A DNA stretch of 57,027 bases, filler included, from Jimgerdemannia flammicorona (Eukaryota): NCBI GenBank assembly GCA_003990765.1. It is 2 parts of 2 records of this genome, joined end to end, with 100 filler letters (N's around TTAATTAATTAA, not from the genome) between each part and the next. Parts side by side here need not be neighbours in the genome. Positions count along the whole stretch, not along the records: positions 28,565 to 57,027 come from RBNJ01000559.1; 1 more part is not named here. One strand, given 5' to 3'. The stretch's first letter is position 1. Each line of letters opens with the position of its first letter. The notes under the pieces were generated by a model that worked only from the letters and a program-made list of their open reading frames with translations, made no database searches and was not told where the DNA came from. This document shows, piece after piece, positions 1,878 to 57,027 of the stretch. A program made the translations under genes and the position numbers.

Positions 1878-1888
1878 TTCTTTCCCCC

Positions 1889-19794: not shown

Positions 19795-20186
19795 GCGTTT
19801 ATATACATAGTATGGTGTGATATAACTAGACTGTCATTGTCCACCACGCCAAAAACAAAGATTTCTATGTGCACCTCGCTCACCCCAATATAAATGTTCC
19901 TCCTGTGAGCAGTGTTATCGTATTTTCTCTTTGTAGTCGAATTCGTGTTTCTCTTTTTTTTCTTTTGGCATTCTTATTTCTCGTTAACGTACTCCTCTGG
20001 TATCCAATTTTTGGGGTCAAAATGGCATGGAAAAAGATGGTTTTAGGCTTCTGGATGTAGGAAGAACAATTTTGTGTTCCATTGGACGTAGCAAACCATT
20101 TATTCATGTTCTATGGAAGACACGCAAGGACATGGAGTATAACGTGGCATTCACTTATTAATTTCGTCAGGAATACTATATTATTA

Positions 20187-22607
20187 TTATTTGCCGATGC
20201 AAAATTCACGAAACACCAGCTCTAGTATCTCCTCTACGTCTACCTGGCCGGTAATCCTGCCCAGGGCGCCGGCTGCCTGGCGGAGCTCTTCAGCAGCAAG
20301 GACGACGTCCGAGTATGGGTCATCTGGAGCGAGTGACGAAAAAAAAAAAAATGGCAATTTTTATAAAGACTGGTGGTGTATGATGAGATGAGAAATAACC
20401 CAACGTTGGCCCCCACTTTTGGTGACCGTCCATTACACCTCAAACCTCACCGAGAAATGTATCTAAAGCCATTAAGCAATCCTTTAAATGTTCACGATGC
20501 CGTGCTTGCGTGATTACCGAGCCAGAAGAGACTGATGCTGCTGCGGGATCAAACCTATTCGGTACGAACGACATTAAATCAAACGCCTAGCATACCCTAA
20601 TTTTGCGGGAATAAATGCAAGTATAACCCCAAGTAGTCGTCCCCCTTTCCGTCCACATTTCCGTTAGACTCACTTGTCACTCAGTATTTCCACAAATTCA
20701 TTCATAAACTTGTCGAACCCTTCGCCAGTCTCGCACGATAGTGTCCAAATATGCATTGGGGTGGACATAGCGAAAATACGTCGAATCAGGGCGCTATTAT
20801 TGATTACGGCAGGGCTGCCAGGTATAGTATCACACTTATTGAGTATGAGAAGCGTATCAGGGTCGATGATATCGCGAGTCATGTGTATCAGCGGGGTAGA
20901 ACGTTCGGAGAGGAGATCGGGAAGTGAGAGAAGGCATATTTTGATATCTGCAGAATCGATGCTGAAATGAGCATTCAAAGGGAGACATACTATGAGGACT
21001 GATTATTGGGAGAAATGGGGCAAATGGAGTCGTATGGAAAAACAAAAAGTTGTATCCAAGGGTCCCTATGAGCGGCGAAACGTGTTCTCGATGGAAGGGA
21101 ACAAACTTACCGTCTCAGCGCTCTTTTCACGCCTTCCATCTCAATCACGTCCTGGGAGTCCCTTAAACCTGCCGTATCGCTCATGATGACGGGATATCCA
21201 GCAACGTTAAGTGCGACTTCGACCACATCGCGGGTCGTGCCAGGGATGGGGGACACGATGGCCGCTTGGCGCTGAGCTGGGAAAGGCGTATGCCGATCAA
21301 AAAACAGTTATTGGGAAATAATCTCTTGGTGAAGCAACACTTATGTATACAGTGTCGTCCAGATAAAGTCGAGAGCAACCGAATCTGTAAATGTAAACGG
21401 ATGGAGATGAATACACACCCATCCTATTAAGAAAACTGCTTTTCCCAGCATTTGGTGGTCCCAAAATGGTAACATTGATGCCGTCGCGCAGAATCTCACC
21501 ACGTCGATTATCGTCCGTGTGCTTATAAATTGAAGCGCGTAAGGAGCGAATGATAATGACGACTGAAGATGTCGAGCGACATTTGCGAATCAGCTCGAAT
21601 GAAGCTAAAATTTTCATCACATTGTTCCTCAATAGTGATCGCATTGTCATACCTCGATCGATCACTTTTTCCTCAATTCCGTCCTCTTCGCCAAAGTCAA
21701 TTAGTGCTTCTAGAGGTGCCATACTCTTGAGCATTTGTGTGCGCCATGACTCGTAAAGTTGTTTCAATCCGCCCTGCGTGCAAAATGCGCGAAATTATCA
21801 AAAATGCATGTCCTCAGGAGGGCAAGAACAGATCAAAATGCAGCATTTAGAACATACCTCGGCTTGTCGCAGGGCCTGTTTACGTTGTGCCTCCGTCTCG
21901 GCGTTCAACAGGTCCGCGATGCCTTCGACAGACGTAAGATCTAACTTGTTGTTTTCAAATGCTCTAGAGTGGCATTCGTTCGCGCACATGCATTAATGTG
22001 TTGTATTCGCGAAGGAATCCATATCACAGATATATTTAACCAGCAATTTTACCGGCGTGAAAATTCTCCGCGTTCAGCCATCCGGAATCCAGCGTCAACA
22101 CACCCTAACGCGTCCAGAACACCGCGAATGACGGCAGTGCCGCCATGAATGTGCAACTCGACCACATCCTCGCCGGTGAAGCTGGCTGGGCCTGGACAGT
22201 TTCGGGATAGCGGAGACCAAATTAATGGAAGGGCTTGAAATTTGGTATTACATTTCTGCTGAAATCAATGGCTCACCAGGAAACCAGAGGACCAATCCTC
22301 TATCAAGAAAATCTCCTGAGCTTGGGTGCCAAATTCTGCGGAAAACCGCTTGCCGAGGATTTGGTAGATATGATCCGGTAATTCGATCCTTAATACCAGG
22401 TGCAATTCTGGTCAAAACCTGTATCAGCAGCACTGTATGAGTGTTTGACTTGATCAACTCGTGATAAACAATGGAAATTACCTCTGACGCACGGGGGCCC
22501 GAAACACGTATTACAGCAAGGCCAGCTTTTCCAGGAGCGGAGGAGAGGGCGAAGATTGTGTCTGTGTGAGATGCTGCAAGGAGGGAGCGGCCGAGTGTCC
22601 TAAGCAT
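20187..22607 (-). CDS. MSS1: Mitochondrial tRNA modification GTPase (MnmE/TrmE/GTPBP3 family), multi-exon
   Basis: [65 protein letters not shown]-terminal FREFCIGK*. Start codon uncertain. Confidence 0.93.
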
Positions 22608-23392
22608 TGCAGTGCCGAGATGTGAGGAGAGAACAGTCACAGCATAGCCGGGAATGTTGGTATAAAACCGTGGGAAGCGGAATTTTCCCCCACTACCTTG
22701 CCGTTTAAGCAATTATTACTCCAAATATAAATCATCACATGCAAAAAGCGTAATCGACAACAAAAAAAGGTACTAATCTAGATAGGTCATAAGGTGCTTT
22801 TTAATAAACTTCGCCTCATATAATAATATATCGACCCTGCAAAGTAGAAACGACTATTTTTCCCCAAGGCCATCAAAGCACGTGTCATTGAGCACCCCTC
22901 TGGTAAAAGCCGACGAACATGTATCCAACCGTCTTCTGCACATGGTGGTAACAGATGCTCGCACGGCACTAGCATGACCGTGGCTTGTAGTTTATTTCCT
23001 CGGACGATGCAAGACGTCTATGTAATGGTGTGATAAACTATCCACATGGGGCGTGTTCGTGTTGGAGAGGCGATATCAGAAGAGGAATAAGGGTAGGCTA
23101 AAGACGCTGATCTGTAATTCGATCTGCCAATAATGTTCTCAACCTAACCGATCGCGGTTGTTTTTCCACTATAAGCCGAAACTTTACCACATGTGGTGTT
23201 GTCCTTAAGTGGTACACCAGAACTTTCACATGTCGGTGTTTGACAACTTCTCCACAATCACTTTTGGTGTTCCTCTCTTTCCTTTGCCTTCGTGCTCGTC
23301 GAGGTGGAACGCATCTTGTTATCATAACACTCTTAGCACATTAGTATATATAGACATTAACCCCTCACTTACCCAGGGTGCGGTAGATTGAA

Positions 23393-25420
23393 ATGACCCA
23401 TCTAAGCGATTTTAGCTTTTTGCGTAGGTTTCCTCTTCCTTTTGTTTTATGGTTGACAGTTCGGGACAAGTCAGTCGTCTTGGAATTTGTTGCAAACCTG
23501 TTCATATTGGCTTCTCTTCCTTGTTTACACTACAGAACGAGCGGTATCCCTCACCTACCTATACATCTTCTTGATAATTCGCGTATACCAGGTCAACCAT
23601 TTCCAATGTCTTGCACCTTCGCGGTTACGAGCTGGTGAGCTCAAAGGCATCGTAACGGTTTTGGTAATGATAGCAATACCATTTCAATTGTACTATGGTA
23701 GGTGGCTACCGGATCTCGCAGATTGTAGTACGGGATGAATTAAAAGCGACCACATACTGATCTGCTGTCTTGACCATTGGTATAGATTGGACGTCAACGA
23801 AAATCAAATATGATGAAGGCTTCATGATGCTTCCCAATACAGCCACAATCGTAAACAAACCTTTCGAAGCTTGGACTGACGCCGACAAAGCTCTGGTGCC
23901 ACCGACTGATTACAGTCTGTGCGTTGGTTTTTCACTGCAGACGTATGTATCGGAAATTCATTTCGCTCATGAGATTTGCGTAATACTTACTGCATAGATA
24001 CCATCGAGTCAATGCTTAAGAAATATCGTAGGTTTAGCGAAGCACGACATTAAACATTTTACCCAAATAGTGGTACATTATTCCTTCTCCAGTCGTTTTG
24101 GAATTACCTTGCAAATTCCGTCGCGAAAGCAAGCTTCATGGGGAGCTTGGAATTTAAGTGGTACATTCTGTGGTAGGTAGTCTTGCTCGCTTTATATAAT
24201 CAAGGTACAATCGACATGGTTATTGATGCAACCGCTAATTCCGTTTAGGTGCGGCGTAAGCATCATCATGTTTCCTGCCCTTCAATATAATTTCAGTCGG
24301 AGTGTTTATGATCCCACTTGGAAGGAGATCATCCCAGAGCTTGCATACGGTGTCGGTTAGTGCATATGTTTTACTGAATCTCCTGAGTTGGCAGTGATGG
24401 TCGCGATATTAACAGGCTTCCTTGCTTACTTTGCAGAGTTGCTTATTGTCTGTATGCTGGGCATCCAATCGCATTTCCGTTTCACGAAACTCATCTCGCA
24501 AACTCGCAACTCGACCAACGAGAAAACTATCGTTCAGAAATTGACATACTTCATGGAAATGAACAAGATTCTTATTGTGGCTCTACTTGTGGACTCGGTC
24601 TCATTAATTACGCTTAGCGTTGATGGGTTGACACCAGAAGCATTCCTCAACAAGCACAAGTTCACGGCAGACTTATTCATTTGCAACGCCAATTTCGCCA
24701 GCTTCATCATTTGGTTTTTGGTTATCATGATTTTCCATCCTCGACATGGCTACGGTATACAATTTTTTTTTCTCAACATTGTTAATGGTTCATAACGGTC
24801 TATACTGACGATTCGTCATTTTCATCACAGGTGGTGTTGGAACAACCTCGTCGTTTAATACCACTAACGGTCAAGCCCGAACTCACGTAGTTGATGGCAC
24901 CCACTCCGTTGTCCCTATTCATGATCAACCCAATACCAAAGCCAATGGATATATCCCGTATGGTGCAAACGACGCCACAGGGGACCTTAAGGACCCACCT
25001 CCGCCCTTGTCTCCTACAACTCCGAAATACCAAAACTATAATACGAACCCGCCACCGAAGTCGCCAAAATCACCACAACGACCCACCTCTCCCGCTCACA
25101 ACGGCTCATCCTCCTCGGAAGGTGCGAATGCCTCGGGCGAAACACGACCGCTGGCGACTGATCACGGAATCGAATTCTACGCCGTGACATCTGACAGGCC
25201 GCCACGTAGAAGACCCAGCTCCCCCGCCGCTGCAGTTCCGAGGCCCCGTGCCGACGATATTCCCATGCAAACCATGTTCGAGGAAGAATGTGGAGATAGG
25301 CCATCTTCGCGACAACAGCACCGTGTCCCGCATCAACGACCAGGACAAGGAAGTTTTGATAATGGAGGGGCCCGTCGGGATCGAAACCTACAACGGGACA
25401 ACAGTACCGATAGCGGCTGA
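23393..25420 (+). CDS. Uncharacterised multi-exon 7-TM membrane protein with Pro/Ser-rich C-tail
   Basis: Exons joined at GT-AG sites give seven hydrophobic segments followed by a long disordered tail ending DNSTDSG*. Confidence 0.75.
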
Positions 25421-28086: not shown

Positions 28087-28464
28087 TGTAAGAGGGTTGC
28101 TTTTTAGGGTAACTGTTACGTAGTTCTGGAAGGGTTTTCTGGAAGTTCTGGATATTCTGGAAGACTGTTTTCTTATGGTCAAGATCAATTTCGTATGGAG
28201 TACGTCCTCTACGCTTATTGATTTCAAGATCGGGTTGACGTCTCAACCAAAGTCCCTTTTTGGACTAGTTCTGGATATTCAGGATTTTCTGTATTTCAGG
28301 AAGTTCAAGAAACTAAGACCAGCTCAGTTGAATTGGTGTATCGCTGCAGACAATACCCAATTAGGAAATTTCGTGACGGGGTTAGGAGTAGGACCTAACA
28401 GGGAGCGGATTTACTTAAGAGTGGTTTGTGGGTTATGAAATAGGTTTATTCGCTATTCATGATA
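28087..28464 (-). repeat. Family-2 LTR U5/R end, inserted in the third Gypsy; cut by the gap
   Basis: Reverse complement of ~47706-48082, starting TGTAAGAGGG. Confidence 0.9.
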
Positions 28465-28564
28465 NNNNNNNNNNNNNNNNNNNNNNNNNNNNNNNNNNNN
28501 NNNNNNNNTTAATTAATTAANNNNNNNNNNNNNNNNNNNNNNNNNNNNNNNNNNNNNNNNNNNN
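28465..28564. other. Assembly gap (44 N + TTAATTAATTAA + 44 N)
   Basis: N runs flank a six-frame stop linker. Confidence 0.95.
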
Positions 28565-32851: not shown

Positions 32852-34853
32852 TGTAAGAGGGTTACTTATTAGAGTAATTATTACATAGTTCTGGAAGAGT
32901 TTTCTGGAAGTTCTAGATGTTCAGAAAGATCATTTTCTTATGGTCAAGATCAATTTCATATGGAGTACATCCTCTATGCTTATTGATTTCAAGATTAGAT
33001 TGATATCTCAACCAAAGTCCTTTTTCAGACTAGTTCTGGATATTCAGGATTTTTTGTATTTCAGGAAGTTCAAGAAACTAAGACCAGCTTAGTTGAATTG
33101 GCATATCACTGCAGACAATACCCAATTAGGAAATTTCATGACAGGGTTAGGAGTAGGATCTAATAGAGAGTAGTTTTACTTAAGAGTGGTTTATAGATTA
33201 TTAAATAGGTTTATTTGCTATTCATGATATTGCTATACTAGGAGTAGTTGTGTGAAGGGGTATTGTGGGGAAGTGTTCAGGAATGTTCTTGTATATTCAA
33301 GTCTGTTTGCATCTGAGATTCTGAGGTCTGGGAGAGGGGGTATTTATACTAGTGAGAAGCTATCTGGACTATGCTAAATATGAGTGTAGTACTTAGTATC
33401 TTGCTGAGTCAGTTCACAGTCATATCATATAAGGCTAATCTAACTATACTATGACTGCTAGTCTATTTATAAGTTTAGATGCTATCTGGGTAGTCTTCAA
33501 TGATATTATCTCTGATAAAGTAGTTGTCTAGAAAGAGTTATTTGCAGATTAATTCTCTCTATTCACTGAGGTAATAATATATTGAGACTTCATCTCTATC
33601 TCACAGAATAATATCATCTGTCTCATATGCTGGATAAGGTGTTAGTGGGTGAAGGAGGGATGTATTGTCTTTACTTTCATCAGATTCGCTGTCTGTATAC
33701 CTTCTATAAGTTATGGCACTATAAGTTACTGGATTGTAGTAAGCTGGTGGCTGTGGTTCATGTTGCTCATACTCAGGTAGTAGAGTTGTTGATTCGATCT
33801 CGAGAGTTGTCTGGAGGTACAGATTATATTCTCCAGTCTCTTCATTATAGTTAAAATAATCAGAAGTGAATGTGGGTTGGTACTCATACTAGTGGTCATT
33901 GTCTCAATAAGTCTCATAGATGGTTATGAACTATTGTAAGTTCATTGGCAAGGTTGGCAGAGTGATCAGAGTTGGTAGGGATCCTTGGCTGGAGGTCATA
34001 TCAGCATCAGAGAGATCATTGTCTTCTGCCTCATCTTCATCAAATTGGATTATATCATAGATATTCTTCATAGTATATCTAACTTGGGGTATCTGTAGGA
34101 TATGGTCATTGGGGTGTGGGAAGATTCTGTCTGTAGTCTGAATATACTCAATATACTTGTGGTTGAGTTCTTATATCATGTCATCAATTTGGCCATAGAA
34201 TAGAGTAGTAATCATTTCAGTAGTAGTAACTTAGAGATGGAAGATAACAGTACTATACTTATAGAAGAGTTCTTGATGTTTATAGGCAATGAGTTTCTAG
34301 TGTTGAGACATCTGGGTAATATCTATATTGTAGTGGTGTTTGACCATATCTTCTAGGAGGTAGCTGATTTGGTAGTAGCTTGAGATTTGTCTGATTTGGT
34401 AAGCTTCACTAAGCATGTTCAGGATATTCCATCAGACTTCCACAAAGTAGAGGGGTGCTAAGCTATGGATATTTATGAGAGGCAGAAAAAGTGTAGCTCA
34501 GTTGATAATGGCATTCCAAATATCAGCACAGATGCAGTTGTAGATCTCAGTGGTCATGTTTGTATATGTTCAGGAGTTGAAGTTATTTATTTAGTTTGTT
34601 TTAGTTCTCTGTTTCAACATATCTCAATGCTTGGTATATATGCATTTGGTCCTGATTGGTAAGATTCTGTTTATGTAAATCTTATATTTTGTGACTTTAT
34701 ATTGACTCAGCTTTGTATGCTATAACTTTAGTTTGACTCAGCTTTATAATCCTATATGTAATTTCTGGATTTGTTCAAACATCACATGTGATTTCAGTGG
34801 CTTGTTTAGAGGGTGACATGTAATTTCAGTGGCTTGGAGGTTGTATATTTACA
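32852..34853 (-). repeat. Family-2 3' LTR (2002 bp) containing the U3 ORF at 33475-34557
   Basis: TGTAAG...TTACA termini; reverse complement of 45986-48082; PPT at 34855-34866. Confidence 0.92.
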
Positions 34854-40917: not shown

Positions 40918-41692
40918 TGTAATAACTCTCACTTCTACTCCTCTCTTATCCTTTAGATAATTAGGAAAGTAAGACTATTACTTAGGAACTTAGTACACAG
41001 TGTATACCAAGAAGCCTTCAGTTTGAGGAAGTGCTCACTTAAAAGTAGTTGTAGTGGTAGTACCTTATCTTTTAAAGATCTTTCTGATTTGCCCTATCTT
41101 TCAAGGATCTTGTTCTTTGCTATGTACAGAGTTAATTCGCCTTGGAATTCAGGTTCAATAGATTTACTTAAGTCTTTAGGGATTTATATACTAGTCTCAG
41201 TTCTGGCAGAAGTTAGCTAGGCTTCTGGAGTTTAGTCAGAAACACTAGAGTCACTTAGGTGTCATTACTAAGACTCAGGAGAATGTGTATATGTAGGGGG
41301 GACTTGATTCTTATATCAAGGACTAAACTAAAACTGCTTTATTTTGGATGGAAACTGGGGGGTATTTATACAAGTTGGTCTATGATTTCTGACTAACTAT
41401 AATTTAGTAACTATGGTGAGGTTTGTGATTGCAATATCTATTGCTAGGAAATGATCAGTATTGCTGCAGCACTAGTTGCTATAGTGCCAATTACTGTAGT
41501 GCTGATTGCTGCAGTACCGTACTGCAGCACTGATTACTGAGAATAAGCTGGATATTATTTATTTACATTGTTTGCATCATTTATTATATTCATCATTCAT
41601 AATATTATATATCATGCTTGATTATATGATGATGTCATTACTTGCTGAGTTATATGATTGCTCATTACATCTTGTCTGTTTGTTCTATTACA
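40918..41692 (-). repeat. Family-1 3' LTR
   Basis: TGTAATAACTCTC...CTATTACA; PPT at 41693-41705. Confidence 0.92.
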
Positions 41693-41703
41693 TCCTTCCC
41701 TCC

Positions 41704-42528
41704 TTAGAAATCAATATTCTTGTTAATTCAGAAATTGAGAACCAGGGGAGAGAAAGGCAGAGAATCTTCCTCAGTATTGTTGCCATCTTCTTCAGTAGCA
41801 GGAGTGGTTACTGGTGGCTTGCTGTCCAGAATGGAGAAGTTAATAAGGTCTGCAAATGGTTCTTATATTGGAATAGGCACTGGTGTAGGGGTTCTCCATC
41901 TGATGCAGTTGGGACCATCCAAGAAGAGTTCTTGATCCTCATGCCTAGAGATATCCATTTGGATAGGTGGTTCTTCAAGGAGGTCATAGAGGCCTTGGAG
42001 CCATTGGTCTGGGTTGTCATTCAGAAGAGGGCTCCAGTGGGGCTCAATTTTAGTAGACTTGAGAGTAATCCAGAAGTTGGCTTTCTGGATTATCATAATT
42101 TCTAGCTTGTCAACCTCAGAAAAGGAGAGGTTCTGGAAGTTCTTTAGTTGTATATAGTTGAGGTTGAGAATTACAAAGAGTGCATGGTGCATAATTTGAT
42201 GAACCTTCTTGGCAAGTCTTTGCTCATACCTGTCCAGGTGGGTTCAGTCTGAAACCTGGTCAGTGGGTAGGCCATTTGTATGTTAAAAAAGCTAGTGGCT
42301 GATTTCATATTTATGCCAGATCTCTAGGTGGCTAGTAGCAAGGTAGGCTCTTTCAATAAGTTCATAGCAGTCAAGGACATATTGTCCTAGGTCTGGGCTG
42401 GAGAGGTTAAGGGTCTTAGAGCAGTGGTTCCTTCCTTAGATAGTAACCTAGATATGTTCAAAGAGATAGTCAACCTGGCTTGGGAGGAGCTGGCTATAGC
42501 AGACAGTTTGGCAGTAGGTAGCAGGCAT
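41704..42528 (-). pseudogene. Accessory ORF3, second copy
   Basis: 275 codons; net length difference from 1889-2731 is a multiple of 3; includes track ORF 41863-42192. Confidence 0.72.
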
Positions 42529-45500
42529 TCTTGTCTTGTCTTTTCTTTATAAGAAGAGGGGAATAAGAGTTGTAAGATATTCTTACCTTTGGTATTTATA
42601 CTTATTCACCTGTTTGGTGTGACCTTCTTTTGATCATACTTTTTATCAGAATGCATGACCTGTTGCTGTAAGCAGAGCATATGCTGGTCATATGAGAAAA
42701 TCTTGATTTCAAAGATATTGCTATTTGTAGTTGTGGTTACACAGAGTTGACAAATCTTGGTCCTCTTTTTTTTTTATCTGGTTGGTACATTTGCAAGGAC
42801 TGGCCATCCTTGTCTAGGGCAAGGGCTCTCATTATTGTGACTGGGGGTTCAAACCTCTCAGAAATAGTATTTCTTATAATCTGAAGCAATTTCTAAGTAA
42901 TAATATCTGTTATATGAATGGGCTTAGATTGGTTTTGACATCATCAGCTTTCCTAAGTTCTATATAAAACATCTGTCATCATCCAGTAGAGATGATATAG
43001 ATGGTATAAAATGGAGTTGTTCAAATATATTTTACTGTACTATACTATATTGTCCTTCATCTGAGTATCTTCCTATTAATTATATAGTATTCCTTTTTCT
43101 GCAATATTCAGTATTATATGTTTTGGATAAAATATATAGTATGTTGTTTGCTAGGTGCTCTGATTCTTTAGAGCTGCAGTTCCTTCCTTTGCTGAGAAGT
43201 GAGTGTTTCCATATAGTCTTAGAGGGCTTTGTATGCATTCTCTAGAGTTTCTTTCTTTTCCCAAGTAGTGTCATGGGTGGGGTAACCCTTCCACTTGATG
43301 AGAAAACTCTGTTTAACTGTTTTGGGATATTTGTGGATCTTGTAGTTAAGTACTTCCTTGATTTCGAATTCCTCATGATTATTGATTCTAGTTGGAGGTG
43401 GTGGTGGAACTATATGCTTAGGGAATGGGTTCTCATGATAGTCCACCAATTGACTGATATGGAATACTGGGTATACTTAGATATTTTGGGGAAGTTACAA
43501 CTTGTAATTGACTTTGCTGACTTTTTCCACAATCTTATATGGTCTAATTCTTCTAGCATGGAGTTTCTTGGCTAGTTGTTGTACCAGGGTATCTGGGTGG
43601 AGGTGGTCAGTTCTAAGCATAACTATATCACTAATGTTATAGGAGACTTCTCTTTGCTTCAAGTTCATATACTTGGTCTAGTAGTCTTGTACTTCTATGA
43701 GAGCATCTCTTATCATTTAAGTAAGATTAGAAATAGTCTCAGCCAGATCTTGGACTGCTGAGACTACTGATTTTGCAATAGTACTTGGGGTTCTTGGGTG
43801 TTGACCATAGTTCAAAAAGAATGGAGTTTTCTTCATAGAGGTTTACTGGCTGTTGTTGTAGGCAAACTCGGCATGGGCTAGGTACTTGTCCCAATCATTC
43901 TGCTTATAACAGTAGAAGAAGCTAAGCATCTGCTTGAGAGTCCTATTGATTCACTTGATTTGACCATTAGTCTGAGGGTAGTATGTAGTAGAGAACTTCA
44001 GCTTGGTTCAATAGAGATTGAAAAATGTCTTCTAGAAGTTACTTATAAACTTATCATCTTGGTCAGATACAATAGTGCTAGATATATCATGTAGTCTGAA
44101 TACTTAGTTGAGGAAAATCTTAGCAATCTCTGGTGCTGTAGCAGTGGTCTTGGTGAGTGCAAAATGGGCTTGTTTGCTTAGGCAGTCTACAAATATCACA
44201 ATGGCATCTCATCCTGTCTTGGTCTTGGGGAGTTGGACAATGAAATCTATTGCAATCTGATCTTAGTTATGACTTGGAATTGGTAGTGGTTGCAGAAGTC
44301 CTGCTGGTAGCTTGCTACCACTTTTGAATCTTTGGCATATCTCATATGAGGCCATAAAGTCTTTTATGTCCTTGGTCATCTTTGGCCAGTAGAACTCTCT
44401 TGAGAGAAGGTTGTAGGTCTTCTCAAAACCAAAGTGTCCTACTGCAGGAGTATTATAGAGTTCCTGCATAATCTTGAGTCACAGAGTATCCTTATTAGAT
44501 ATAACTACTCTGTTATGATCTCTGTAGATAAGTCTATCACAGTAAGTGAATCTCTTAGACATCTACCTCATGGGTTCTGGGATCTCAGCCTCTGGGTCTT
44601 AACAGAATTGAAGAAATCTCATCAGGGGGCTATCTTGCTGGTAGCCATCTTTGATCATTTGATAAGGTCTCCAATTACCTCAACCATGAAGACAAGTTCA
44701 TCTTTCATATACCTAGAGAAACCATCAGCTACATAGTTAGTTTTACTTGAGATATACTTGATTTCTATATCAAAGTTAGTAATGATTTCCATCTAGCAGG
44801 CTTGTCTATGGGTTAGCATAGGCTGTATATGGATATACTGCAGAGTATAGTAATCAGTATAGGCTACAAATAGTTGTCCTAGGAGAAAGTAGTGCCATTC
44901 TTAGAGTGCAGTGACAATGGCCAGGAGTTCTTTCTCATTAGTAGTATATTAGGTCTCAGCTGGCTTGAGCTTTTGGGAAAGGTAGGCCACTGGGTAGTCT
45001 TCTTGACTGAGTACTACCCCAATGGTAATATCAGAGGCATCTGTGGTAAGAGTGAATAGCCTAGTAGAATCAGATGTAATTAGTACTGAGGCCTCAGTAA
45101 GGAGTCTCTTGAGGTGGTTCATAGTTTGGGTATATTCAGGGGTCTATTCAATCTTGATATTTACTTCTTTGTAAACCAGGCTGGTCAGTGGGGCTGCAAT
45201 AGTAGAGTATCCTTAGATAAACCTTTGGTAGTAACCAGTAATACTCAGAAAGCACTAAAGTAGCTTAAGGATAGTGGAAATAGGAATATCCTTAAGGGCT
45301 GATACCTTTCAAGGGTCTATGTTGATACCTTTAGTAGAGATGATATATCCTAGGTACTCAATCTGGTCTTGATAGAACTTATACTTACTCATCTTGGTAT
45401 AGAGCTGGTGTCCTCACAGAAGGGTCAGTATCTGTCTGAGGTGAGTGTTATATAACTCCACTGTTTCACTATAGATCAATATATAATCAATATATATAAG

Positions 45501-45985
45501 GACACAGATATTGAGAAGTGGTCCAAATCATTTATCAGATACTAGAATATTGCTGGTACATTAGTCAAACCAAAAGGCATAACTTGGAACTAGTAGTGTC
45601 CAAACTATATTTGGAAAACTGTCTTTTCAATGTCCTTCTCATCAATGAGGATCTGATGATAGCCATTTCACAAGTCTAGTAGAGAAAAGGTCTTGGCCTT
45701 GAAGATTTGGTGCAACAACTCATCAATCCTAGGCAAGGCATACCAGTTCTTGATGGTGATCTTGTTGAGGGCTCTGTAGTCAATACACATTTGCAGAGAG
45801 ACATTCTTCTTCTTGATAAACAGAATGGGGGCTCCAAATGGAGAGCAGCTGAGTTCAATATATCCTTAAGCCAGTAGTTTAGTTAACTCATCCTTGAGGG
45901 TCTTGAGTTCAGGTTGGGCTAGTTGGTAGATACTCTTATATAGCAGTTCAGATCCTAGAATGTGATCAATTCTACATTGGATTTG

Positions 45986-48082
45986 TGTAAGCACACAACC
46001 TCCAAGCTACCGGAATTACATGTCACCCTCTGAACAAAGCCACTGAAATCACACGCGAGCTCCGAACAAATCTGGAAATCACCTGCTTGATCACGAAGCT
46101 GAGTCAAACCAAAGTCACAGCGTACAAAGCTGAGTCAATACAAAGTCACAGAACACAAGATCTACACAAACGGAACCTTACCAATCAGGACCAAATGCAT
46201 ATATACTGAGCACCGAGACATGTCAAATCAGAGAACCAAAACAAACAACAACTACAACTTCCAAACATACAAACATGACCACTGAGATCTACAACCGCAT
46301 CCGCGCTGACATTTGGAATGCCATTGTCAACCGAGCCACACCCCCTCTGCCCCTCATAAATATCCATAGCCTGGCACCCCTCTACTTCGTGGAAGCCCAA
46401 TGGAACGCCCTGAACATGCTTAGTGAGGCCCACTGAATCGGACAAATCTCAAGCTACTACCAGATCAGCCGCCTCCTGGAAGACATGGTCGAACACCACC
46501 ATGATACAGACATTACCCAGATGTCTTAACACCAGAAGCTCATCGCCCGCAAATATCAAGAACTCTTCTATGAGTACAACACCTTTATCCCCCGCCTCCG
46601 AGTTACTACCAGCGAAATGGTTGCTACCCTGTCCTATGGGCAAATCGATGATATGATACAAGAACTCAACCATAAGTACCTCGAGTATATCGAAACCACA
46701 GACAGAACCTTCCTGCACCCTGATGACCATATCCTGCAAATGCCTCAAGTCGGATATGCCATGAAAGACGTCTATGATATAATCCACTTCGATGAAGATG
46801 AAGCAGAAGACAATGATCCCTCTGACGCCGATATGACCTCTAGCCAAGGATCTCTGCCAACCCTGATCACTCTGCCAACCCTGATCACTCTGCCAACCTT
46901 GCTGATGAACTTACAACAGTTCATAACTGCATATGAGACTTATTGGGACAATGACCACTGGTACGAATACCAACCTGCATTCACCCCCGATTACTTCAAT
47001 TACAATGAAGAGACCGGAGAACACAATCTGTACCTTCAGACAACCCTCGAGATTGAACCAACCACTCCACCACCTGAGTATGAGCAACATGAACCACAGC
47101 CGCCAGCATACTATAACCCCGCAACTCATAGTGCTATAACCTATAGAAGGTACGCAGACAGCGAATCCGATGAAAGTGAAGACAGTATACCCATCCTTCA
47201 CCCACCAACACCTTATCCAGCATACGAAACAGATGATGCTATCCTGTGGGATGGAGATGAAGTCCCAATGTATTACTACCTCAGCCAACAAGGAGAAGTA
47301 ATCCGCGAATCATTATTCCTAGACAACTACTTTATCAGGGATGATACAATCGATAGTGATGTCATCGAGGAATACCCAGACAGCACCTAAACCTATAAAT
47401 AGTCTAGCAGTCATAGTATAGATAGATTAGCCTTGTACAATGTGACTGTGAACTGACTCAGCAGTCAGATGATCTCTTGACATGTCAGATCACACTTGTA
47501 CTACATGACTACATTCTGACTCAGCAAAGCACTTAGTGCTACATCCATATCTAGCCTAGTCCAGATAGCCCCTTACTAGTATAAATACCCCCTCTCCCAG
47601 ACCTCAGACCTCAGAATCTCAGACTTGAAGACTTGAACAATCCGAACACAACTCCTGAGCACTTCCCCACAATATCCCTTTACACAACTACTCCTAGTAT
47701 AGCAATATCATGAATAGCAAATAAACCTATTCCATAACCCACAAACCACTCTTAAGTAAATCTGCTCTCTGTTAGGTCCTACTCCTAACCCTGTCACGAA
47801 ATTTCCTAATTGGGTATTGTCTGCAGCGATACGCCAATTCAACTAAGCTGGTCTTAGTTTCTTGAACTTCCTGAAATATGGAAATCCTGAACATCCAGAA
47901 CTAGTCCAGAAAAGGACTTTGGTTGAGACGTCAACCCAATCTTGAAATCAATAAGCGTAGAGGATGTACTCCATACGAAATTGATCTTGACCATAAGAAA
48001 ATGGTCTTCCAGAATATCCAGAACCTCCAGAAAACCTTTCCAGAACTACGTAATGGTTACCCTAAAAAGTAACCCTCTTACA
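45986..48082 (+). repeat. Family-2 5' LTR (2097 bp)
   Basis: TGTAAG...CTTACA; TATA at 47580-47587. Confidence 0.95.
46275..47390 (+). pseudogene. LTR(U3)-encoded accessory ORF (~371 aa)
   Basis: ATG 46275 (MTTEIYNRIRADIW) is in frame with track ORF 46617-47390; only two stops (TGA, TAA), each one C>T from CGA/CAA. Confidence 0.8.
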
Positions 48083-48085
48083 ACT

Positions 48086-48099
48086 TGGTAGCAGCGGAT
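48086..48099 (+). other. Primer binding site, initiator tRNA-Met type
   Basis: TGGTAGCAGCGGAT 3 nt after the LTR; complementary to a ...CUGCUACCA tRNA 3' end; same core in family 1. Confidence 0.8.
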
Positions 48100-49044
48100 T
48101 ACAATCCAATTCCGCTTCAAGACGCTTTCTCACCCCGCTACAAACCTCTCTGCAAATTTCTATAAGTTGGTATAAAGCCCAACCTCTGAACTGGAATTTA
48201 TCCTGAACCATCTGACAATCTGGAGAGAATTGAACCTGACGTACAAGGACAATTTGACCTCCACACCTGCAACAAGTGGGACAAACTTCATTCTAAGAAA
48301 GAAATACTCCAGTTAAATCAGCAAATAGGTGAAACCCTATTCACCGAACTCCTTGCACTACACCCAGCAAGTTACGATGAAGAAGGTCTTATTGAAGCCT
48401 TCTTTACTCTTCTCAACAAGAGTTTTGTCAGCTCCACAAATCCGAGTGACCTAGGACAACCAGCAGCAGTCTTTCTAGCCTTAGTTTCTCATGAAGCCCA
48501 AGCCTCTGTAGCCAAGTGGCTCAACTCTACCAACTTTCACTGCACCAGGACCAAGACCGCATTATACTACCGATTCCAGAACAGCAAGGCTCACCATATT
48601 CTTAAGGAAGAAGCAAGAGAAACCCTTCATCAACTACCTGACCCCGAATCTGAAGCAGGCCCTGCTACAACCCTACCTGAATCTGAAACCAATACCGAAC
48701 CTGAACTTGACTTTGAATTAAGTCCATCTGAAATCAGATATACAACTGATTCTGTCTACTTTGACGCTGAGCAAACCCAATTACACGGGGACCAAACCGA
48801 AGAAGAGAAGGAGTATCTCACTGAATTCGATCCTGGATATACCACCGAAGGAGACACACACCCATCAGGACAGAATACACCTACACAGCAACAAACAGCT
48901 ATCTATCAAGCCCTCACTTCAGATCCACAACTACTACTTCAGCAACTTACACAGACCCAAAGAACTCCATCACACTCTGCACCAGTACCTCAAGCAGTAC
49001 CAGTAACACCACTACCAGCAGTCCAACCACCTCCAGCAATCAAC

Positions 49045-52000
49045 ATGGCGAACCAACAGATTCTAGACCTCACAGCCCAAGTAGTTATAATGGCAGCAAC
49101 CATTACTGCCTTAGCTGAACAGACCCAACCTACCAAAAATCTGAGCCTACCTACCTTCAATGGTACTACACAAGAAGTCCAAAGCTTCATTAGTGTAGTT
49201 GACACCAACTTCGAAGCCAATCAATGGACCAATGAACGAGTTGCTGACTGCGTTCTGACAAACAATCAAGACCACACCCTGGAACAACTCTTTGCTACAA
49301 CTACAGCCTATGTCCGCTGAGTTGTTACATTCTTCCAAGGACCTACCGAAGAATGGTAGCGAACCCTTCCTGAAAAACCCCTCACATGGGATACCCGACC
49401 TGCAGTAATTGCTCAGAATGCAGCAAACAATGTCCCAGGATATGGAGCCCATCCTGCAGCCCCTGGACTCAAACAACTCATGATTGCTCAATATCACAGC
49501 GAAACCATGATTGTCGAATCTCGAGTAAAACTCCACAACCTCAAATTTGATGTACATGGCAAAGAAGAATTTGAAACCTTCTGTACAAAACTCAAGTCAC
49601 TCCTGAACACTGTTGGCCTAGGATACATTGCCAATGATGAAGTACGAAATGGTACAAGAGCAGACCATTTACATATTCGATGCCCTGCCTGAATGGCTTA
49701 CTAGAAAAATCCGAGAACAAGGCCGCCCAGTTGGTTGTGACCACCAACAATGGTGCCTGGCAAGAATCAAGACTATGGTCAAGCGAATCCTAACAGCTGG
49801 ACCAATCCTGCCCCGAAGGCAATTCAACAACAACAAAAAGACTTGGACCAAGAAAGAAGAACCCAAGCATGAAGCATTCCGAGCTCCCTCCACATCCACC
49901 TCTTGGACACCCAGAAATCATGAACCCGCCCAGCCAAGTACCTTCAAGAAACTAACTGAAGGCGAAAGGAATGAACTTCGAAGAAGCAGAGCATGCTTCT
50001 ATTGCCGAAAGACAGGACACATGGCCAGTGCCTGCCCTAACCGAAAACCCCGAACAGCAACACGAGCAACTGTTACCACTCTGTACCACCTCAACAACCT
50101 GACCACCAGAACACTAGACTTTGTCAAGTTAAGACAAACTGCTAAGGCCCCAACCAAAGGAAGTCAAAAAGCAGCCAGATATGACCTGTATGCTGCCGAA
50201 GAAGCTACAGTCTCCAACCGAGAAGTCAAACAAGTCTACACAGGAATTAGTATCCAAATCCCTGAAGGACATGTTGGAAGAATATGCTGTCGCAGCAGCC
50301 TAGCATTAAAAGGACTCTCAGTAGAAGGAGGAGTCATTGACGAGGATTACACAAGCAAAATTATTATCCTCATCCGAAACCACAGTTGGACACCCTTCAA
50401 GATCCCTATTGGCTTCTGCATCACCCAGATCCTGTTCGAAAAAATTGAGTCAACCCTGACAGTCAAGGAGGTCTCTGAACTACTACCCACCATCCGAGGA
50501 TCCAAAGGATTTGGCTCATCAAACAAGGCCCCAGCCCAACCTACTGTGAGCAAAGAAGAACAATTCTACAAGAAGATCGAAGATGGATATGTACCAAGTG
50601 GCCGATGCCCTCATGGTATTGGAATGTACTCTTCCCGAATGATTGATGATTGCTTCTCTTGTGTCAACGAACTGGCTCAAAGAAGAACCAACAGAAGAAA
50701 GGCTCCTACAACTGAAATCACCACCATTGGATCAGACAAACTGCTCACCCTTAAGGCTTTTGTCAACGGAGCACCTGTCAAGATTATGATAGACAGTGGT
50801 GCCTCAGACAACTTCATCAATGAGGAAACAGCCAACAGACTCAAGGTCTTCACCTCCCCAGTACAGCAAACTCAAGCAGTTGCTACAGCTGATGGAACCT
50901 CGCATATTATTAGCAAAGAAGTCCGCAATCTACCCTTCCGAATTGGTGACTACCGAGTACATGTCACCCTCCAAATCATATCACTTCCGGATAATAAAAT
51001 CATCCTTGGGACTCTATGGTTAAAACGAGAAAACCCTATGATCGATTGGGTAAACCATTCTCTGACCATCAAGAAAGGACGCCACAACTTCAAACTACAA
51101 GGTGAAAAGGACCCACTCAACTCTAGTGACCCTGGACCAAAGATCACCCACATCAACAAACTACAACTCAAGAAATTGGCCAAAAAATACCCTCTCTTCG
51201 CTATCTCCATCCGCCCATCCAAAGGAGAACCCGAGAACTCCAAAGAGGATTTTTCCAAAGTTAACAGCCATGTCAGACCACTACTCCAGAAATTCCGAGA
51301 CATATTCCCAAAGAAGCTCCCGAAAGGCCTACCTCCCAAACGAGCAGTAGATCATGCCATCAAGACTATCCCAGATGCCAAACCAGCCTTCAAGTCAATC
51401 TACCACATGTCTCCGAGAGAAATTGATGTACTCAAGAAGGAAATCGACGAACTCCTAGAACAAGGATTCATCAGACCCAGCATATCACCCTATGGTGCAC
51501 CAGTCCTCTTTGTTGTCAAGAAAGGAGGAGACCTACGAATGTGCATTGACTACCACGATCTCAACGAACAAACCATCAAGAACTGTTGCCCACTACCGAG
51601 GATCGATGAAATATTCGATAGACTTACCAACCCACAATTCATGAGCTCTTTTGACCTGCGAAATGGTTACTGGCAAATTGCCATGAAAGAAGAAGACATC
51701 TACAAGACAGCTTTCCGAACTCACTATGGACACTTTGAGTTCCTGGTTATGTCCTTTGGCTTAACTAATGCTCCAGCAACCTTCCAGACACTGATGAATA
51801 CCATTCTGCATCCATACCTGGACAAATTCGTTGTTGTCTACATTGACGACATCCTAGTTTTCAGCAAAACCCTGGAGGAACATCTTGAACACCTTGAACT
51901 AGTACTACTGAAACTCCGAGAAAACAGACTCTTTGCAAAACTCAGCAAGTGCGAATTTCTCCTGAAAGAAATTTAATTCCTTGGACACATTGTCACTCCG

Positions 52001-54178
52001 AATGGAATCAAAGTGGACACAAGCAAAATCTCTGTAATCAAAGATTGGCCCAGACCGAAGAAGCTGAAAGACCTCCAGTCATTCCTGGGATTAGCAAACT
52101 ATTACAGGCGATTTGTGGCCAACTTTGCTAAAATCGCTACTGCCCTCACCCAAATGACCAAGCACAACAAGAAATAAGAACAACTCTGGACTATGAAACA
52201 AGAGAAGAACTTCAACAATCTTGTACATTGGGGACCCGAACAAGACACCACCTTTCAAGCACTGAAAGATGCCCTGATAACCACACCAGTACTTTAAGCA
52301 GCAAACTCTGCCCTACCATATGAAGTCACCACTGATGCCTCTGACCTAGCTCTTGGAGCAGTGCTCATGCAAGAAGGACACCCTGTGGCCTATCACTCCC
52401 GCAAGTTCAACGATGCCGAAATCAACTACGCAACTCACGAGAAGGAAATGCTAGCCATCGTAGACACCCTGATCAAATGGCGACCATACTTAGAAGGAGC
52501 ACACTTCACTGTATTAACTGACCACAAGTCACTAGTCAACATCAAGACACAGGCTACCCTTTCTCGAAAGCAAGCTAGATGGATGAAAGTCCTCACCAAC
52601 TTTGACTACAAAATCCAGTACCGCTCTGGCAAGAAAAATACTGTTGCCGATGCAATCTCCAGACCACCAATCGAAGAGGTTATCCAAACTCTGACCCTGG
52701 TTACCAACACTATCATGGAACAAATCATCGCAGCATGTGTTGATGATAAAGAAGCTCAAGCACTCTGAGAAATCCTGAATAATGATGATGCTGACAAGTA
52801 TACCCGGTACAATCAATACCAACTCAAGGACGATACTATCTACTACAAGGACAGATTGTATGTTCTAAACAACCGGGACCTCCGAAGGACTATCCTATTT
52901 GAATGTCATAATGTCCCTACAGCTGGACATTTAGGATTTGACAAATGCTATGAAGTTATCTCCCGAAACTTCTATTGGCCCTACATGGCAGATTAGCTCA
53001 AAACCTACATCACTTCCTGTGATGCCTGCCAACGAAACAAGTCCTCAACACTAGCAAAACCCGGCTTACTTCACCCTATTCCAGTACCATCCGCAAATTG
53101 GGAACAAATCTCTATAGACTTCATTGTACAACTACTCCGAACCAAGAACGGAAAAGATGCAATTGTTGTCTTTGTGGACTATCTCAGCAAACAAGCCTAC
53201 TTTGTGCCTACTACCACTACTGCAACAGCACCAGACATAGCCACACTCTTGTTTGACAACATCTTCCGCTATCATGGTCTCCCCAAGATCATTGTTAGTG
53301 ACCGAGATCCGAAATTCACCAGCCACTTTTGGAAAGCCCTCCATGCACACCTTGGAACGAAACTTGCACTATCCACAGCCTTTCACCCTAAAACTGATGG
53401 CCAAACCGAAAGAATGAACCGAACTCTAGAACAAATGCTAAGAAACTATATCTCCTACAGACAAGATGATTGGCATGAACATCTCACTGCAGTCGAGTTT
53501 ACCTATAACAATAGCAAGCAAGCCTCTCTTGGAATGACCCCATTCTTCGCCAACACTGGACAAAATCCAAACACCCCTTTAACACTTGTCCGAACCACTG
53601 AAGAACCCTCCACAGTTGAAGCTGTTGAAGAATTCTTACTCCGAATGCGCAATCTAAGCCAGATCGCAATCAAGAATTTATCACGAGCTCAAGAACAACA
53701 GTTACAGTATGTTAACCAACACTGCCGAGAAGAAACTTTTGATATTGGAGAAAAAGTCCTACTAGACATCAGAGGATACCGAGTTGACAACCTCAAGCAC
53801 AGACCATCCACAAAGCTGAACAGCAAGTTCATTGGACCATTTGAAGTCATTGCACAAGTCTCTCCAACCTCCTACAAACTGGCACTACCAGACACCATTA
53901 AGATTCACCCAGTCTTTAATGTTCAACATCTAAAGCGATACAATGACAATGATGATGAGCTATTTCCAAATCGGACCACCAAACCACCTGCACCTGTCAT
54001 CATTAATGACCAAGAAGAGTATGAAGTTGAACAAATCCTCAACAAACGTGGAAACAAGAACCATCCTGAGTACCTTGTCAAATGGAAAGGTTATCCGATC
54101 CACGATACAACCTGGGAACCCAAGACCAATCTTCAAAATGCTACCAACCTAGTTCAGGAATATGATTCCTTGAACTAG
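49045..54178 (+). pseudogene. gag-dUTPase-PR-RT-RH-IN-chromodomain polyprotein (ancestrally one ORF)
   Basis: [14 protein letters not shown], dUTPase ~50120-50520, IDSGA, YIDD, HPKTDGQTER, GPF, chromodomain EEYEVEQIL...YLVKWKGY...TWEP. A 4-nt insertion near 49672 (absent in the minus copy) and a few stops break the frame. Confidence 0.95.
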
Positions 54179-54603
54179 AACCAAATACTCTGCACCTATC
54201 CATACATACTATATATTACCCTCCTGAACATTATAACTATTACGAACCAAATCAAGAACTCGGCAAAACAAGACAAGAATACCAACCCTCTGAAAAAATA
54301 GCAAAACTGAAAGCAAGCCTATTCTCCCTGTACCACTGGTGGGAAACAAGGCATAGACATTTAAGAAGATTCCTTAGAGGAAATTCTCCAGCAGTGAATG
54401 ACATCAGAATCACTTCTGGTGCACAGCATTGAACACACGACCCTTTAACATGTGAATCCAATGTATTAGGCAACTGTACTACAAGCATGCCACTTTCTGA
54501 GAAAATGGACCTTGCCGGACTTTTGACCTCCCAAATGGTGTAACAACACTAGAACAAATTAGAAGGCCCTGACAAGGATGTCGAAAGCTAAGAAGGGGAG
54601 AGT

Positions 54604-56675
54604 TGTAAGTGCATAACCTCCAAGCCACCGAAATCACATGTCACCCTTGGAACAAGCCACTGAAATCACACGTGACCTCTGAACAAATCTGGAAATCACC
54701 TGCTTGATCACAAAGCTGAGTCAAACCGAAGTTACAGCACACAAAGCTGAGTCAATACAAAGTCACAGAACATAAGATTTACACAAACAGAATCTTATCA
54801 ATCAGGACCAGATGTATATATACCGAGCACTGAGATGCGTCGAATCAGAGAACCAAAACAAATAACAACCACAACTTCCAAACACACAAACATGACCACT
54901 GAGATCTACAACCACATCCGTGCTGACATTTGGAATACCATTGTCAACCGAGCCACACCCCCTCTGCCCCTCATGAATAGCCATAGCCTGGCACCCCTCT
55001 ACTTTGTGGAAGCCCGATGGAATGCCCTGAACATACTTAGTGAGGCCCACTGAATCGGACAAATCTCAAGCTACTACCAGATCGGCTGCCTCCTGGAAGA
55101 TATGGTTGAACACCACCATGATACAGACATTACCCAGATGTTTCAACACCAGAAGCTCATCACCCGCAAACATCGAGAACTCTTCTATGAGTACAACACC
55201 TTTATTCCCTGCCTTCGAGTCACTACCAGCGAAATGGTTGCTACCCTGTCCTATGACCAAATCGATGACATGATACAAGAACTCAACCACAAGTACCTTG
55301 AGTACGTCCAGACCACAGATAGAACCTTTCTGCACCCTGATGACTATATCCTGCAAATGCCCCAAGTTGGATATGCTATGAAGGATGTCTATGATATAAT
55401 CCACTTCGACAAAGATGAAGTAGAAGACAATGATCTCTCTGATGCCAATATGATCTCTAGCCAAGGATCTCTGCCAACCCTGATCACACCACCAAACTTG
55501 CCAATGAACTTGCAACAGTTCATAACTGCATATGAGACTTATTGGGACAATGACCACTAGCATGAATACCAACCCGCATTCACCCCCGACTACTTCAACT
55601 ACAATGAAGAAATCAGAGAACACAACCTGTACCTCCAGATAACCCTCAAGATCGAACCAACCACTCTACCACCTGAGTGCGAGCGACATGAACCACAGCT
55701 ACCAGCTTACTACAATCCTGCAACTCATAGTACTGTAACCTATAGAAGGTATGCAGACAGTGAATCCGATGAAAGTGAAGACAATACACCCATCCTTCGC
55801 CCACCAATACCTTATCCAGCCTACGAGACAGACGATGCTATCCTATGAGATGGAGACAAAGTTCCAATATACTATTACCTCAGTAAACAAGGAGAAGTAA
55901 TCCGCGAACTATTATTCCTAGATGACTACTTCATCAGAGATGATGCAATCGATGGTGATGTCATCGAAGACTACCCAGACAGTGCCTAAACTCATAAATA
56001 GCCTAGCAGTTATAGTATAGTTAGATTAGCCTTGTATGACGTGACTGTGAACTGACTCAGCAGTCAGACAATCTTCTGATATATCAGATCACACTTGTAC
56101 TACGTGACTGCATTCCGACTCAGCAAAGCACTTAGTGCTACACCTATATTTAGCATAGTCCAGATAGCCCCTCACTAGTATAAATACCCCCTCCCCCAGA
56201 CCTCAGAATCTCAGACTTAAACAGACTCGAACACACAAGAACATTCCTGAATACTTCCCCATAATACCCCTTCACACAACTATTCCTAGTATAGCAATAT
56301 CATAAATAGCAAATAAACCTATTCCATAACTCACAAATCACTCTTAAGTAAATCTGCTCCCTGTTAGGTCCCACTCCTAACTCTGTCACGAAATTTCCTA
56401 ATTGGGTATTGTCTGCAGCGATATGCCAATTCGACTAAGCTGGTCTTAGTTTTTTGAACTTCCTGAAATACAGAAAATCCTGAACATCCAGAACTAGTCC
56501 GAAAAAGGACTTTGGTTGAGACATCAACCGAATCTTGAAATCAATAAGCGTAGAGGATGTACTCCATACGAAATTGATCTTGACCATAAGAAAACAATCT
56601 TCCAGAATATCCAGAACCTCCAGAAAACCCTTCCAGAACTATGTAACAGTTACCCTAAAAAGCAACCCTCTTACA
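54604..56675 (+). repeat. Family-2 3' LTR (2072 bp) with U3 ORF copy at 54892-55989
   Basis: TGTAAG...CTTACA; the 25 bp length difference from the 5' LTR is accounted for by 18-bp and 7-bp duplications in the latter. Confidence 0.95.
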
Positions 56676-57027
56676 ACTAGGTTCAGTGGTCTGTGATTCT
56701 TGGTGTTGAATTATTTTTACCTAAGTGCAGAGAATTTGGTAGTGAAGATGAGATTTTCTTTGGTTGATATATGTAATATATATCTCTTATAGTTCATAAA
56801 AACCTTGGCTCAGTAGTAGCTATCTCTGGAGAGATAATTCAGAAAATGTTCACTTGTAGCTTTAATAGATTCTTTAGTATATTTCTCATAAAAATAACTA
56901 CTGATTAATCTTTCAAATTCTTTTCTGATGTCTTTGATATGATCAACTTCTTTGTTGAGTATTATAAATATGTTAAATACTTTTTATATAGTCTTATTAT
57001 TGAGTTTGTCAAATTTCTCTTAGTTGA

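Follow-up and report, generated by a model that had tools for sequence, protein, structure and literature searches.

A candidate accessory gene wholly within the long terminal repeat of a fungal Ty3/gypsy chromovirus

We analysed a 57,027-nt stretch of the Jimgerdemannia flammicorona genome (assembly GCA_003990765.1, two records joined end to end; hereafter the window), whose right third contains nested Ty3/gypsy elements. One of these, the chromovirus element A, has long terminal repeats (LTRs) of 2.1 kb, and both of its LTRs, together with the one LTR of a second, truncated element B, carry a reading frame (the LTR ORF) of 361 to 372 codons. On balance we regard this ORF as a genuine, lineage-restricted accessory gene of the chromovirus family, lying wholly in the U3 region of the LTR and dead in the window; that it goes back to a real ancestral gene is likely. 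The evidence points to a frame that was open in ancestral and other copies and evolved much as coding sequence does, and all three copies in the window have been broken by transition mutations. Being entirely in U3, the ORF would be duplicated, one copy to each LTR, whenever the element is reverse-transcribed. The features on which the argument turns are these.

45986-56675, + strand: element A, Ty3/gypsy chromovirus
45986..48082, + strand: 5' LTR of element A, 2097 nt, TGTAAG...CTTACA (repeat pair, alignment, blastn)
54604..56675, + strand: 3' LTR of element A, 2072 nt (repeat pair, alignment, blastn)
32852..34853, - strand: 3' LTR of element B, whose internal part reaches 40917 and whose 5' part is missing
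46275..47390, + strand: LTR ORF in the 5' LTR of element A, 372 codons including the stop, with internal stops at codon 54 (TGA, 46434) and codon 85 (TAA, 46527)
54892..55989, + strand: LTR ORF in the 3' LTR of element A, 366 codons, 3 internal stops
33475..34557, - strand: LTR ORF in element B, 361 codons, 11 internal stops, with 18-nt and 15-nt in-frame deletions relative to the 5' copy of element A

The reading frame in three LTR copies

An initial annotation of the window had proposed the frame in all three LTRs, and its coordinates, codon counts and the divisibility of each length by three are correct in every copy. The ATG and the terminal TAA are common to all three. The ORF begins 289 nt into the LTR and ends 692 nt short of the LTR end.

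The copies contain 16 internal stops at 13 codon sites, 15 of which are separated from the sense codon of another copy by transitions only. A single transition suffices for 11 of the 16, while four require two (codon 54 in both LTRs of element A, and codons 109 and 339 in B) and one, codon 346 in B, requires a transversion. The earlier description of the stops as single C>T or G>A changes therefore holds for the 11 and fails for the other five. Differences among the ORF copies as a whole are 91-92% transitions, a ratio of about 11:1. CpG enrichment was only about 2-fold (17 of 81 derived C>T changes vs 112 of 961 sites), and we found no clear context of the type left by repeat-induced point mutation. 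At ORF codons 229 and 325 (~46959-46961 and ~47247-47249) the same TGG>TAG and TGG>TGA stops are present in two independent copies, the 3' copy of element A and B, and many further transitions are shared in parallel between LTR copies. With so many parallel hits, copy B proved unreliable as an outgroup for polarising mutations.

Relatives of the ORF and environmental contigs

A search of 5.8 billion protein clusters and 1.84 billion representatives returned two real relatives of the ORF protein, P0001 and P0002. P0002 (128 aa, 91% identical) has the same start Met, an Arg where both LTRs of element A have the codon-54 TGA, and a Gln at the TAA of the 5' LTR. P0001 (247 aa) is 65-67% identical and open to the same C-terminal residues with three in-frame gaps, and it has Trp at both of the TGG codons that were turned into stops in the 3' copy of element A and in B. 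A further match, the 436-aa repeat protein P0003 (E = 3.2e-06, summed over six stretches on one 38-residue motif), was set aside as uninformative, and an alignment query against shorter proteins (30-69 aa) gave 0 matches. Pattern matching for related DNA loci yielded 231 and 339 stretches in metagenome contigs and 134 in viral contigs, none of which was confirmed by tblastn; tblastn of the ORF against the window recovered its own three copies only.

Metagenome contigs of four public runs were aligned to the LTR at a likeness of at least 80% (3841, 448, 423 and 432 contigs). Position 46527, the site of the TAA in the 5' copy of element A, is read as C at almost the full contig depth in every run (2270.5 of 2274 in run X1, 26.1 of 26.1 in X2, 21 of 21 in X4 and 2.8 of 2.8 in X19), and the TAA is therefore private to that copy. 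In X1 the ORF bins (depth 330-1658) are covered about as deeply as the LTR and, for the most part, more deeply than the internal part of the element (423-509), which makes the ORF part of the repeated LTR, not a host gene present in single copy. Presence in most copies of a family is a criterion for additional ORFs (aORFs) of LTR retrotransposons in the sense of Vicient & Casacuberta 2020 (PMC7264820); here the frame occurs in all three of the ORF-bearing LTRs, in the two database proteins and in thousands of contigs.

One 9601-nt contig of run X19 (depth 368.7) matches the window at 81% identity at 46992-47182 only, where the ORF is best conserved, and bears no likeness to the window on either side. 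This contig suggests that more distant relatives of the ORF occur, and may represent such a relative in another element family or a host copy.

Chance, drift and coding constraint

The LTR is rich in A and C and poor in T on the + strand (A 0.34, T 0.23), a composition that lengthens random frames and could in principle have produced an open stretch by chance. When C or G is assigned at every transition difference between the copies, the frame of the ORF is fully open over 412 codons and the other + frames reach 96 and 60, and one antisense frame also opens to 281 codons, as a chance origin would allow. However, none of 2000 first-order Markov sequences of LTR composition reached 372 codons, the longest open stretch of their + strands having a median of 80-101 and a maximum of 197-246 codons. 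The positions of the ATG and of the stop are moreover common to the three copies and the two database proteins, and substitutions are 3-periodic in the ORF only, with no such periodicity in the rest of the LTR. A chance frame is thus very improbable.

We simulated neutral drift to 67% amino-acid identity over the 257 codons that align to P0001. The frame stayed open in 7, 8 and 25 of 1000 simulations (0.7-2.5%) at transition shares of 0.5, 0.67 and 0.9, respectively, a result that is suggestive and not conclusive, because protein databases list open frames only. Indels among the three copies measure 18 and 15 nt within the ORF and 1, 6, 2, 63, 7 and 1 nt in the other 980 nt of the LTR, where four of the six are not multiples of three. 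In the contig alignments the only indels listed within the ORF come from one contig, where a -1 and a +1 lie 2 nt from each other, and six are listed outside it, in a table that is not exhaustive (the known 18-nt variant appears there as loose ends only). Differences fall on codon positions 1:2:3 in the proportions 24:24:62 between the 5' and 3' copies of element A, 55:30:97 between the 5' copy and B, and 69:39:90 between the 3' copy and B, similar in shape to those of pol in the same elements (99:55:166 for protease and reverse transcriptase, PR-RT; 61:31:86 for integrase, IN).

Several findings weigh against a functional gene. Every copy in the window is broken, and the codon-54 TGA is common to both LTRs of element A. 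The majority consensus of the three copies keeps three stops (its codons 54, 223 and 319), each of them present in two copies; the frame opens only under the C/G assignment, which proves little alone because that rule favours open frames. The relatives number only two, and both are gene calls, known here as proteins alone, from a source that lists open frames only. The raw third-position excess is partly a matter of composition, because position 2 is poor in G+C. We corrected for this with a model in which the rates of C>T and G>A depend on the trinucleotide context, and under its assumption that C or G is ancestral at each transition difference the approximate non-synonymous/synonymous ratio of the ORF is 0.66, 0.70 and 0.82 in the three pairs (one-sided p = 0.024, 0.015 and 0.12), a modest signal that is non-significant in one pair. 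A raw McDonald-Kreitman-style table was non-significant, and the evidence for purifying selection comes from three dead copies and two protein fragments.

The protein adds to these counterpoints. It matches no Pfam family at E values up to 1, a PDB profile search gave no relative (best E 0.26), and a 286-aa open piece had no usable match in the ESM Atlas. An AlphaFold2 model (six-row alignment, X at the two stops) has a mean predicted local distance difference test score (pLDDT) of 30.8 and a predicted template modelling score (pTM) of 0.19; it is unusable, and the functional proposal given below draws on composition only for that reason. The protein also contains no basic cluster usable as a nuclear localisation or nucleic-acid-binding signal.

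Many of the same facts would be expected of a passive relic, in which a foreign or new coding piece entered the U3 of one master element and still looks coding because the family is young relative to decay. Such a history fits the broken copies, the absence of relatives beyond the family and of a recognisable fold, and the modest selection signal. It is also in keeping with a sister family (family 1, below) that replicates with a 767-nt LTR lacking the ORF, from which it follows that the gene is not essential to such elements. We nevertheless consider a relic unlikely. P0001 is still open at 65-67% identity with in-frame gaps only, an outcome that neutral drift produces in few simulations, and indels either avoid the frame or are multiples of three. 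The corrected ratio of the ORF, furthermore, equals that of gag-N (0.78) and RNase H (0.74) in the same element, obtained by the same method, with PR-RT at 0.58 and IN at 0.56. By this measure the ORF looks like the less constrained genes of the element, gag and RNase H. The accessory-gene reading is the one we retain.

The predicted protein

Translated from the 5' copy, the ORF encodes 369 residues plus two stops, with an isoelectric point (pI) of 4.19, 66 Asp+Glu vs 16 Lys+Arg, 31 Tyr, 28 Pro and 0 Cys. Residues 171-371 (pI 4.05; 44 Asp+Glu, 4 Lys+Arg, 19 Tyr, 21 Pro) agree with the earlier description of a very acidic, Pro/Tyr-rich C-terminal half, and the blocks most nearly identical to P0001 (14-16 of 20 residues) lie in this acidic half: QPAFTPDYFNYNE.TGEHNLYLQTT, AYYNPAT, HPPTPYPAY and DNYFIRDD. 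The proposed lack of a transmembrane segment is likewise borne out, as the highest 19-residue Kyte-Doolittle mean is 1.49, reached at an internal repeat, and no clear membrane segment is present.

46852..46898, + strand: 18-nt tandem repeat within the ORF (LPTLIT), 2.6 units; one unit fewer in the 3' copy of element A and in B, and shorter in P0001

Helices run across the first 140 residues of the AlphaFold2 model at low confidence, and the N-terminal half is probably helical. An origin of the ORF as a paralogue of gag was rejected (best E 0.15 against the gag of the element), and no host relative was found in Pfam, PDB, the ESM Atlas or the protein clusters, so that neither of the fragment origins raised as a possible refutation in the initial annotation was recovered. 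A reading of the protein as carrying late domains was dropped because the PPxY motifs of the window copy (PPEY, PPAY) are absent from P0001. Judged by its composition, our best guess, weakly held, is that the protein may be a regulatory adaptor or an activator of the element's own expression; an activator role in particular is rather unlikely.

Probable position within U3 and a possible second promoter

The following motifs frame the ORF within the 5' LTR of element A.

46100..46137, + strand: two TGAGTCA sites (basic leucine zipper, bZIP/AP-1/Gcn4-type), starting at 46100 and 46131, 31 nt apart, in a local repeat; kept in all three copies
46200..46205, + strand: TATATA, candidate promoter of the ORF, 70 nt upstream of its ATG; kept in all three copies
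47454..47523, + strand: two TGACTCA sites upstream of the main LTR TATA
47580..47587, + strand: TATAAATA, putative TATA of the main promoter, taken as the marker of the U3 end; kept in all three copies
47720..47725, + strand: AATAAA, candidate polyadenylation signal in R; kept in all three copies

The TATATA and TGAGTCA repeats upstream of the ORF thus exist as the initial annotation described them and are conserved in the three copies; 10 of the 16 TGASTCA sites in the window fall in the 6.2 kb of the three LTR copies. The sole block shared between the LTR of the sister family and the 2.1-kb LTR is 47575-47592, which includes TATAAATA (17/18 nt, E = 0.034). Because of this shared TATA block and the conserved AATAAA we place the main transcription start near 47610, which gives a U3 of ~1.6 kb with the ORF inside it; the U3/R border is thereby a predicted one. 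The ORF lies wholly in the LTR and upstream of the conserved TATA at 47580, in accord with the U3 location first proposed. Contig depth in run X19, which we guess to be RNA, is low over the ORF and climbs, beginning with bin 47624-47701, from 10.6 to 1299 and on to 8088, a weak hint of the main start position, as contigs show neither starts nor levels. Output of a sigma-70 promoter and terminator scan was set aside because the host is eukaryotic.

A different arrangement would place the ORF in R. Genomic RNA would then start from the upstream TATATA (~46230), with the ORF as its first cistron and gag expressed via reinitiation, splicing or internal entry. The conservation of the upstream TATA and bZIP sites is what this arrangement would predict. 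We find it quite improbable, since the only block shared with the sister LTR is the downstream TATA at 47575-47592, R would have to be ~1.5 kb, far above the usual length in LTR elements, and the rise in X19 depth from bin 47624-47701, with low depth over the ORF, points weakly the other way in a run only guessed to be RNA.

We therefore return to an accessory gene in U3. Judging from the motifs, it is possible, if short of probable, that the ORF has its own promoter. Such a promoter would lie at the start of U3, with the TGAGTCA sites at 46100 and 46131 followed by the TATATA at 46200 and the ATG at 46275, and would give an ORF mRNA of ~1.5 kb ending at the LTR AATAAA (47720). Genomic RNA would start downstream, at the family-conserved TATA at 47580. 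Promoter-proximal poly(A) sites are commonly bypassed, as in the poly(A) site occlusion of retroviruses; the AATAAA, ~110 nt from the genomic start, could be bypassed in genomic transcripts and, ~1.5 kb from the ORF start, used in those of the ORF. In its fullest form the proposal describes a fungal LTR retrotransposon that is 'complex' as the term is used for retroviruses, its LTR containing, ahead of the genomic promoter, a self-sufficient cassette of bZIP-site promoter, 372-codon ORF and a poly(A) signal used in common. Any LTR, solo LTRs included, could then in principle express an element-specific acidic regulator that boosts family transcription or blunts host silencing in trans. We put this forward as a speculative and unlikely extension of the accessory-gene reading.

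Comparison with known LTR-associated genes

Genes in such a position are otherwise known chiefly from a few retroviruses. The nearest analogue in layout is the sag gene of mouse mammary tumour virus (MMTV), whose ORF lies wholly in the LTR U3 and whose product, the superantigen Sag, is a type II membrane glycoprotein of a vertebrate betaretrovirus. Like the LTR ORF, sag is a complete ORF of a few hundred codons, entirely in U3 and present in both LTRs. The ORF described here, in contrast, belongs to a fungal Ty3/gypsy element and encodes an acidic protein with no clear membrane segment, no Pfam family and no sequence similarity to Sag. The nearest expression logic is that of foamy viruses, where an internal promoter serves tas and bet; these genes, like nef of human and simian immunodeficiency viruses, are accessory genes at the 3' end that extend into U3. 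The foamy-virus genes are driven by a second promoter, located upstream of the one in the LTR, as we propose for the LTR ORF. Unlike the LTR ORF, which together with its putative promoter lies wholly in the LTR, tas, bet and nef start in the internal region, and they share no sequence similarity with it.

Among LTR retrotransposons, aORFs have been described in the internal region, some of them antisense, including ORF0 of Retrosat2, RIRE3 and RIRE8, gene23 of Grande, those of RIRE2 and Retand, and brtn of Boty (PMC7264820, PMC3485330). As presented in the relevant parts of those papers, they resemble the LTR ORF in being family-specific extra ORFs present in several copies, with no outside relatives and no known function (PMC7264820, PMC3485330). 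They differ in position, being placed either ahead of gag or in the stretch that separates pol from the 3' LTR in the sections of Vicient & Casacuberta 2020 (PMC7264820) that deal with them, whereas the ORF here is within the LTR. In a library of open-access full texts, no LTR retrotransposon turned up in which an ORF lies entirely within the LTR. That LTR retrotransposons can carry additional genes is known, and set beside those parts of the literature it is the placement wholly within the LTR that distinguishes this one.

A gene so placed is doubled with each insertion, would be retained in a solo LTR, and could act in trans across the family, with hundreds of sites as its source. Should its protein be produced, the ORF would provide a fungal parallel to the U3-encoded and U3-overlapping accessory genes of retroviruses and a handle on self-regulation or escape from silencing. 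There is also a warning for annotation, in that long LTRs may conceal genes lost to repeat masking.

The carrier element and other LTR copies

The internal part of element A and a fourth copy of the LTR comprise the following features.

48086..48097, + strand: primer binding site TGGTAGCAGCGG, starting 3 nt past the 5' LTR; an identical site occurs in the family-1 element
48190..54178, + strand: gag-pol of element A, broken; Pfam matches to CCHC knuckle, dUTPase, protease, reverse transcriptase, RNase H, integrase, SH3 and chromodomain
28087..28464, - strand: fragment of a fourth LTR copy, its terminal 378 nt, 94% identical, cut by an N run and without the ORF part

The two LTRs of element A are 89% identical with TG..CA ends, and a polypurine tract, AAGAAGGGGAGAG, lies just ahead of the 3' LTR. 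Pfam E-values are 1.3e-30 for dUTPase, 5.3e-31 for RVT_1, 4.9e-35 for RT_RNaseH, 1.2e-08 for rve and 5.2e-17 for Chromo; the protease matches RVP_2/gag-asp_proteas, and pol runs PR-RT-RNase H-IN, the C-terminus of its integrase bearing a chromodomain. We assign element A to the chromoviruses because of this domain set, chromodomain included, and the chromovirus identity given for the carrier in the initial annotation is confirmed, with LTRs, primer binding site, polypurine tract, pol order and chromodomain all present.

No matching target-site duplication was found around element A (ATTTG vs ACTAG; flanks 45980-45990 and 56676-56700). Its 5' flank is a family-1 reverse transcriptase fragment, which is not taken up again past the 3' LTR, where the sequence is unrelated. 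Element A probably arose by recombination between two insertions, in which case its 11% LTR divergence is unusable for dating and the unexpected selection signal between its two LTRs would be accounted for. The missing duplication leaves the family membership of element A untouched.

Two 44-nt N runs (28465-28508 and 28521-28564) interrupt the fourth LTR, and more of the ORF-bearing family may hide there. Element B breaks off at the equivalent of position 48537 of element A, where it meets a family-1 LTR precisely at the end of that LTR (40917/40918), a deletion or recombination junction between the families. Across the gag-pol junction (49549-49670), elements A and B differ by a 4-nt insertion and a 4-nt deletion, 121 nt apart and mutually frame-restoring; the junction of one of the two copies may mark a natural frameshift region.

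The sister family and its dUTPase

Family 1 occupies two stretches of the window.

1-10083, - strand: family-1 chromovirus with 767-nt LTRs at ~1115-1881 and ~9339-10083 that contain no long frame, and a dUTPase-bearing pol
40918-45985, - strand: further family-1 fragment between elements B and A

Family 1 and the ORF-bearing family 2, to which element A belongs, have the same primer binding site and the same pol layout. Past the 3' LTR of the first family-1 element a second primer binding site and gag start follow (1024-278), indicating two tandem elements that share one LTR. In both families Pfam detects a dUTPase domain that follows the zinc knuckle of gag and precedes the protease (49622-51976, + strand, E = 1.3e-30; 6780-7358, - strand, E = 1.9e-29). 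A dUTPase in pol has been described for fungal chromoviruses of Basidiomycota. Element A is like those chromoviruses in combining CCHC knuckle, dUTPase, protease, reverse transcriptase, RNase H, integrase and chromodomain, and differs in that its 2.1-kb LTR carries a gene, the sister-family LTR of 767 nt being without the ORF.

Host genes between the transposon nests

Intron-bearing host genes occupy 11754-25420, between the transposon nests; an ORF at 14762-15559 in this interval had no Pfam match.

11754-12329: tetratricopeptide repeat protein (TPR_1, E = 2.6e-16)
17813-19575: transketolase
21297-22712, - strand: MnmE/TrmE-type GTPase

In agreement with a fungal host, though no proof of one, the best PDB matches of the transketolase are 5hje and 1trk (~1e-79), which we take to be fungal, yeast-type enzymes, vs 4e-63 for 1itz, presumably the plant enzyme.

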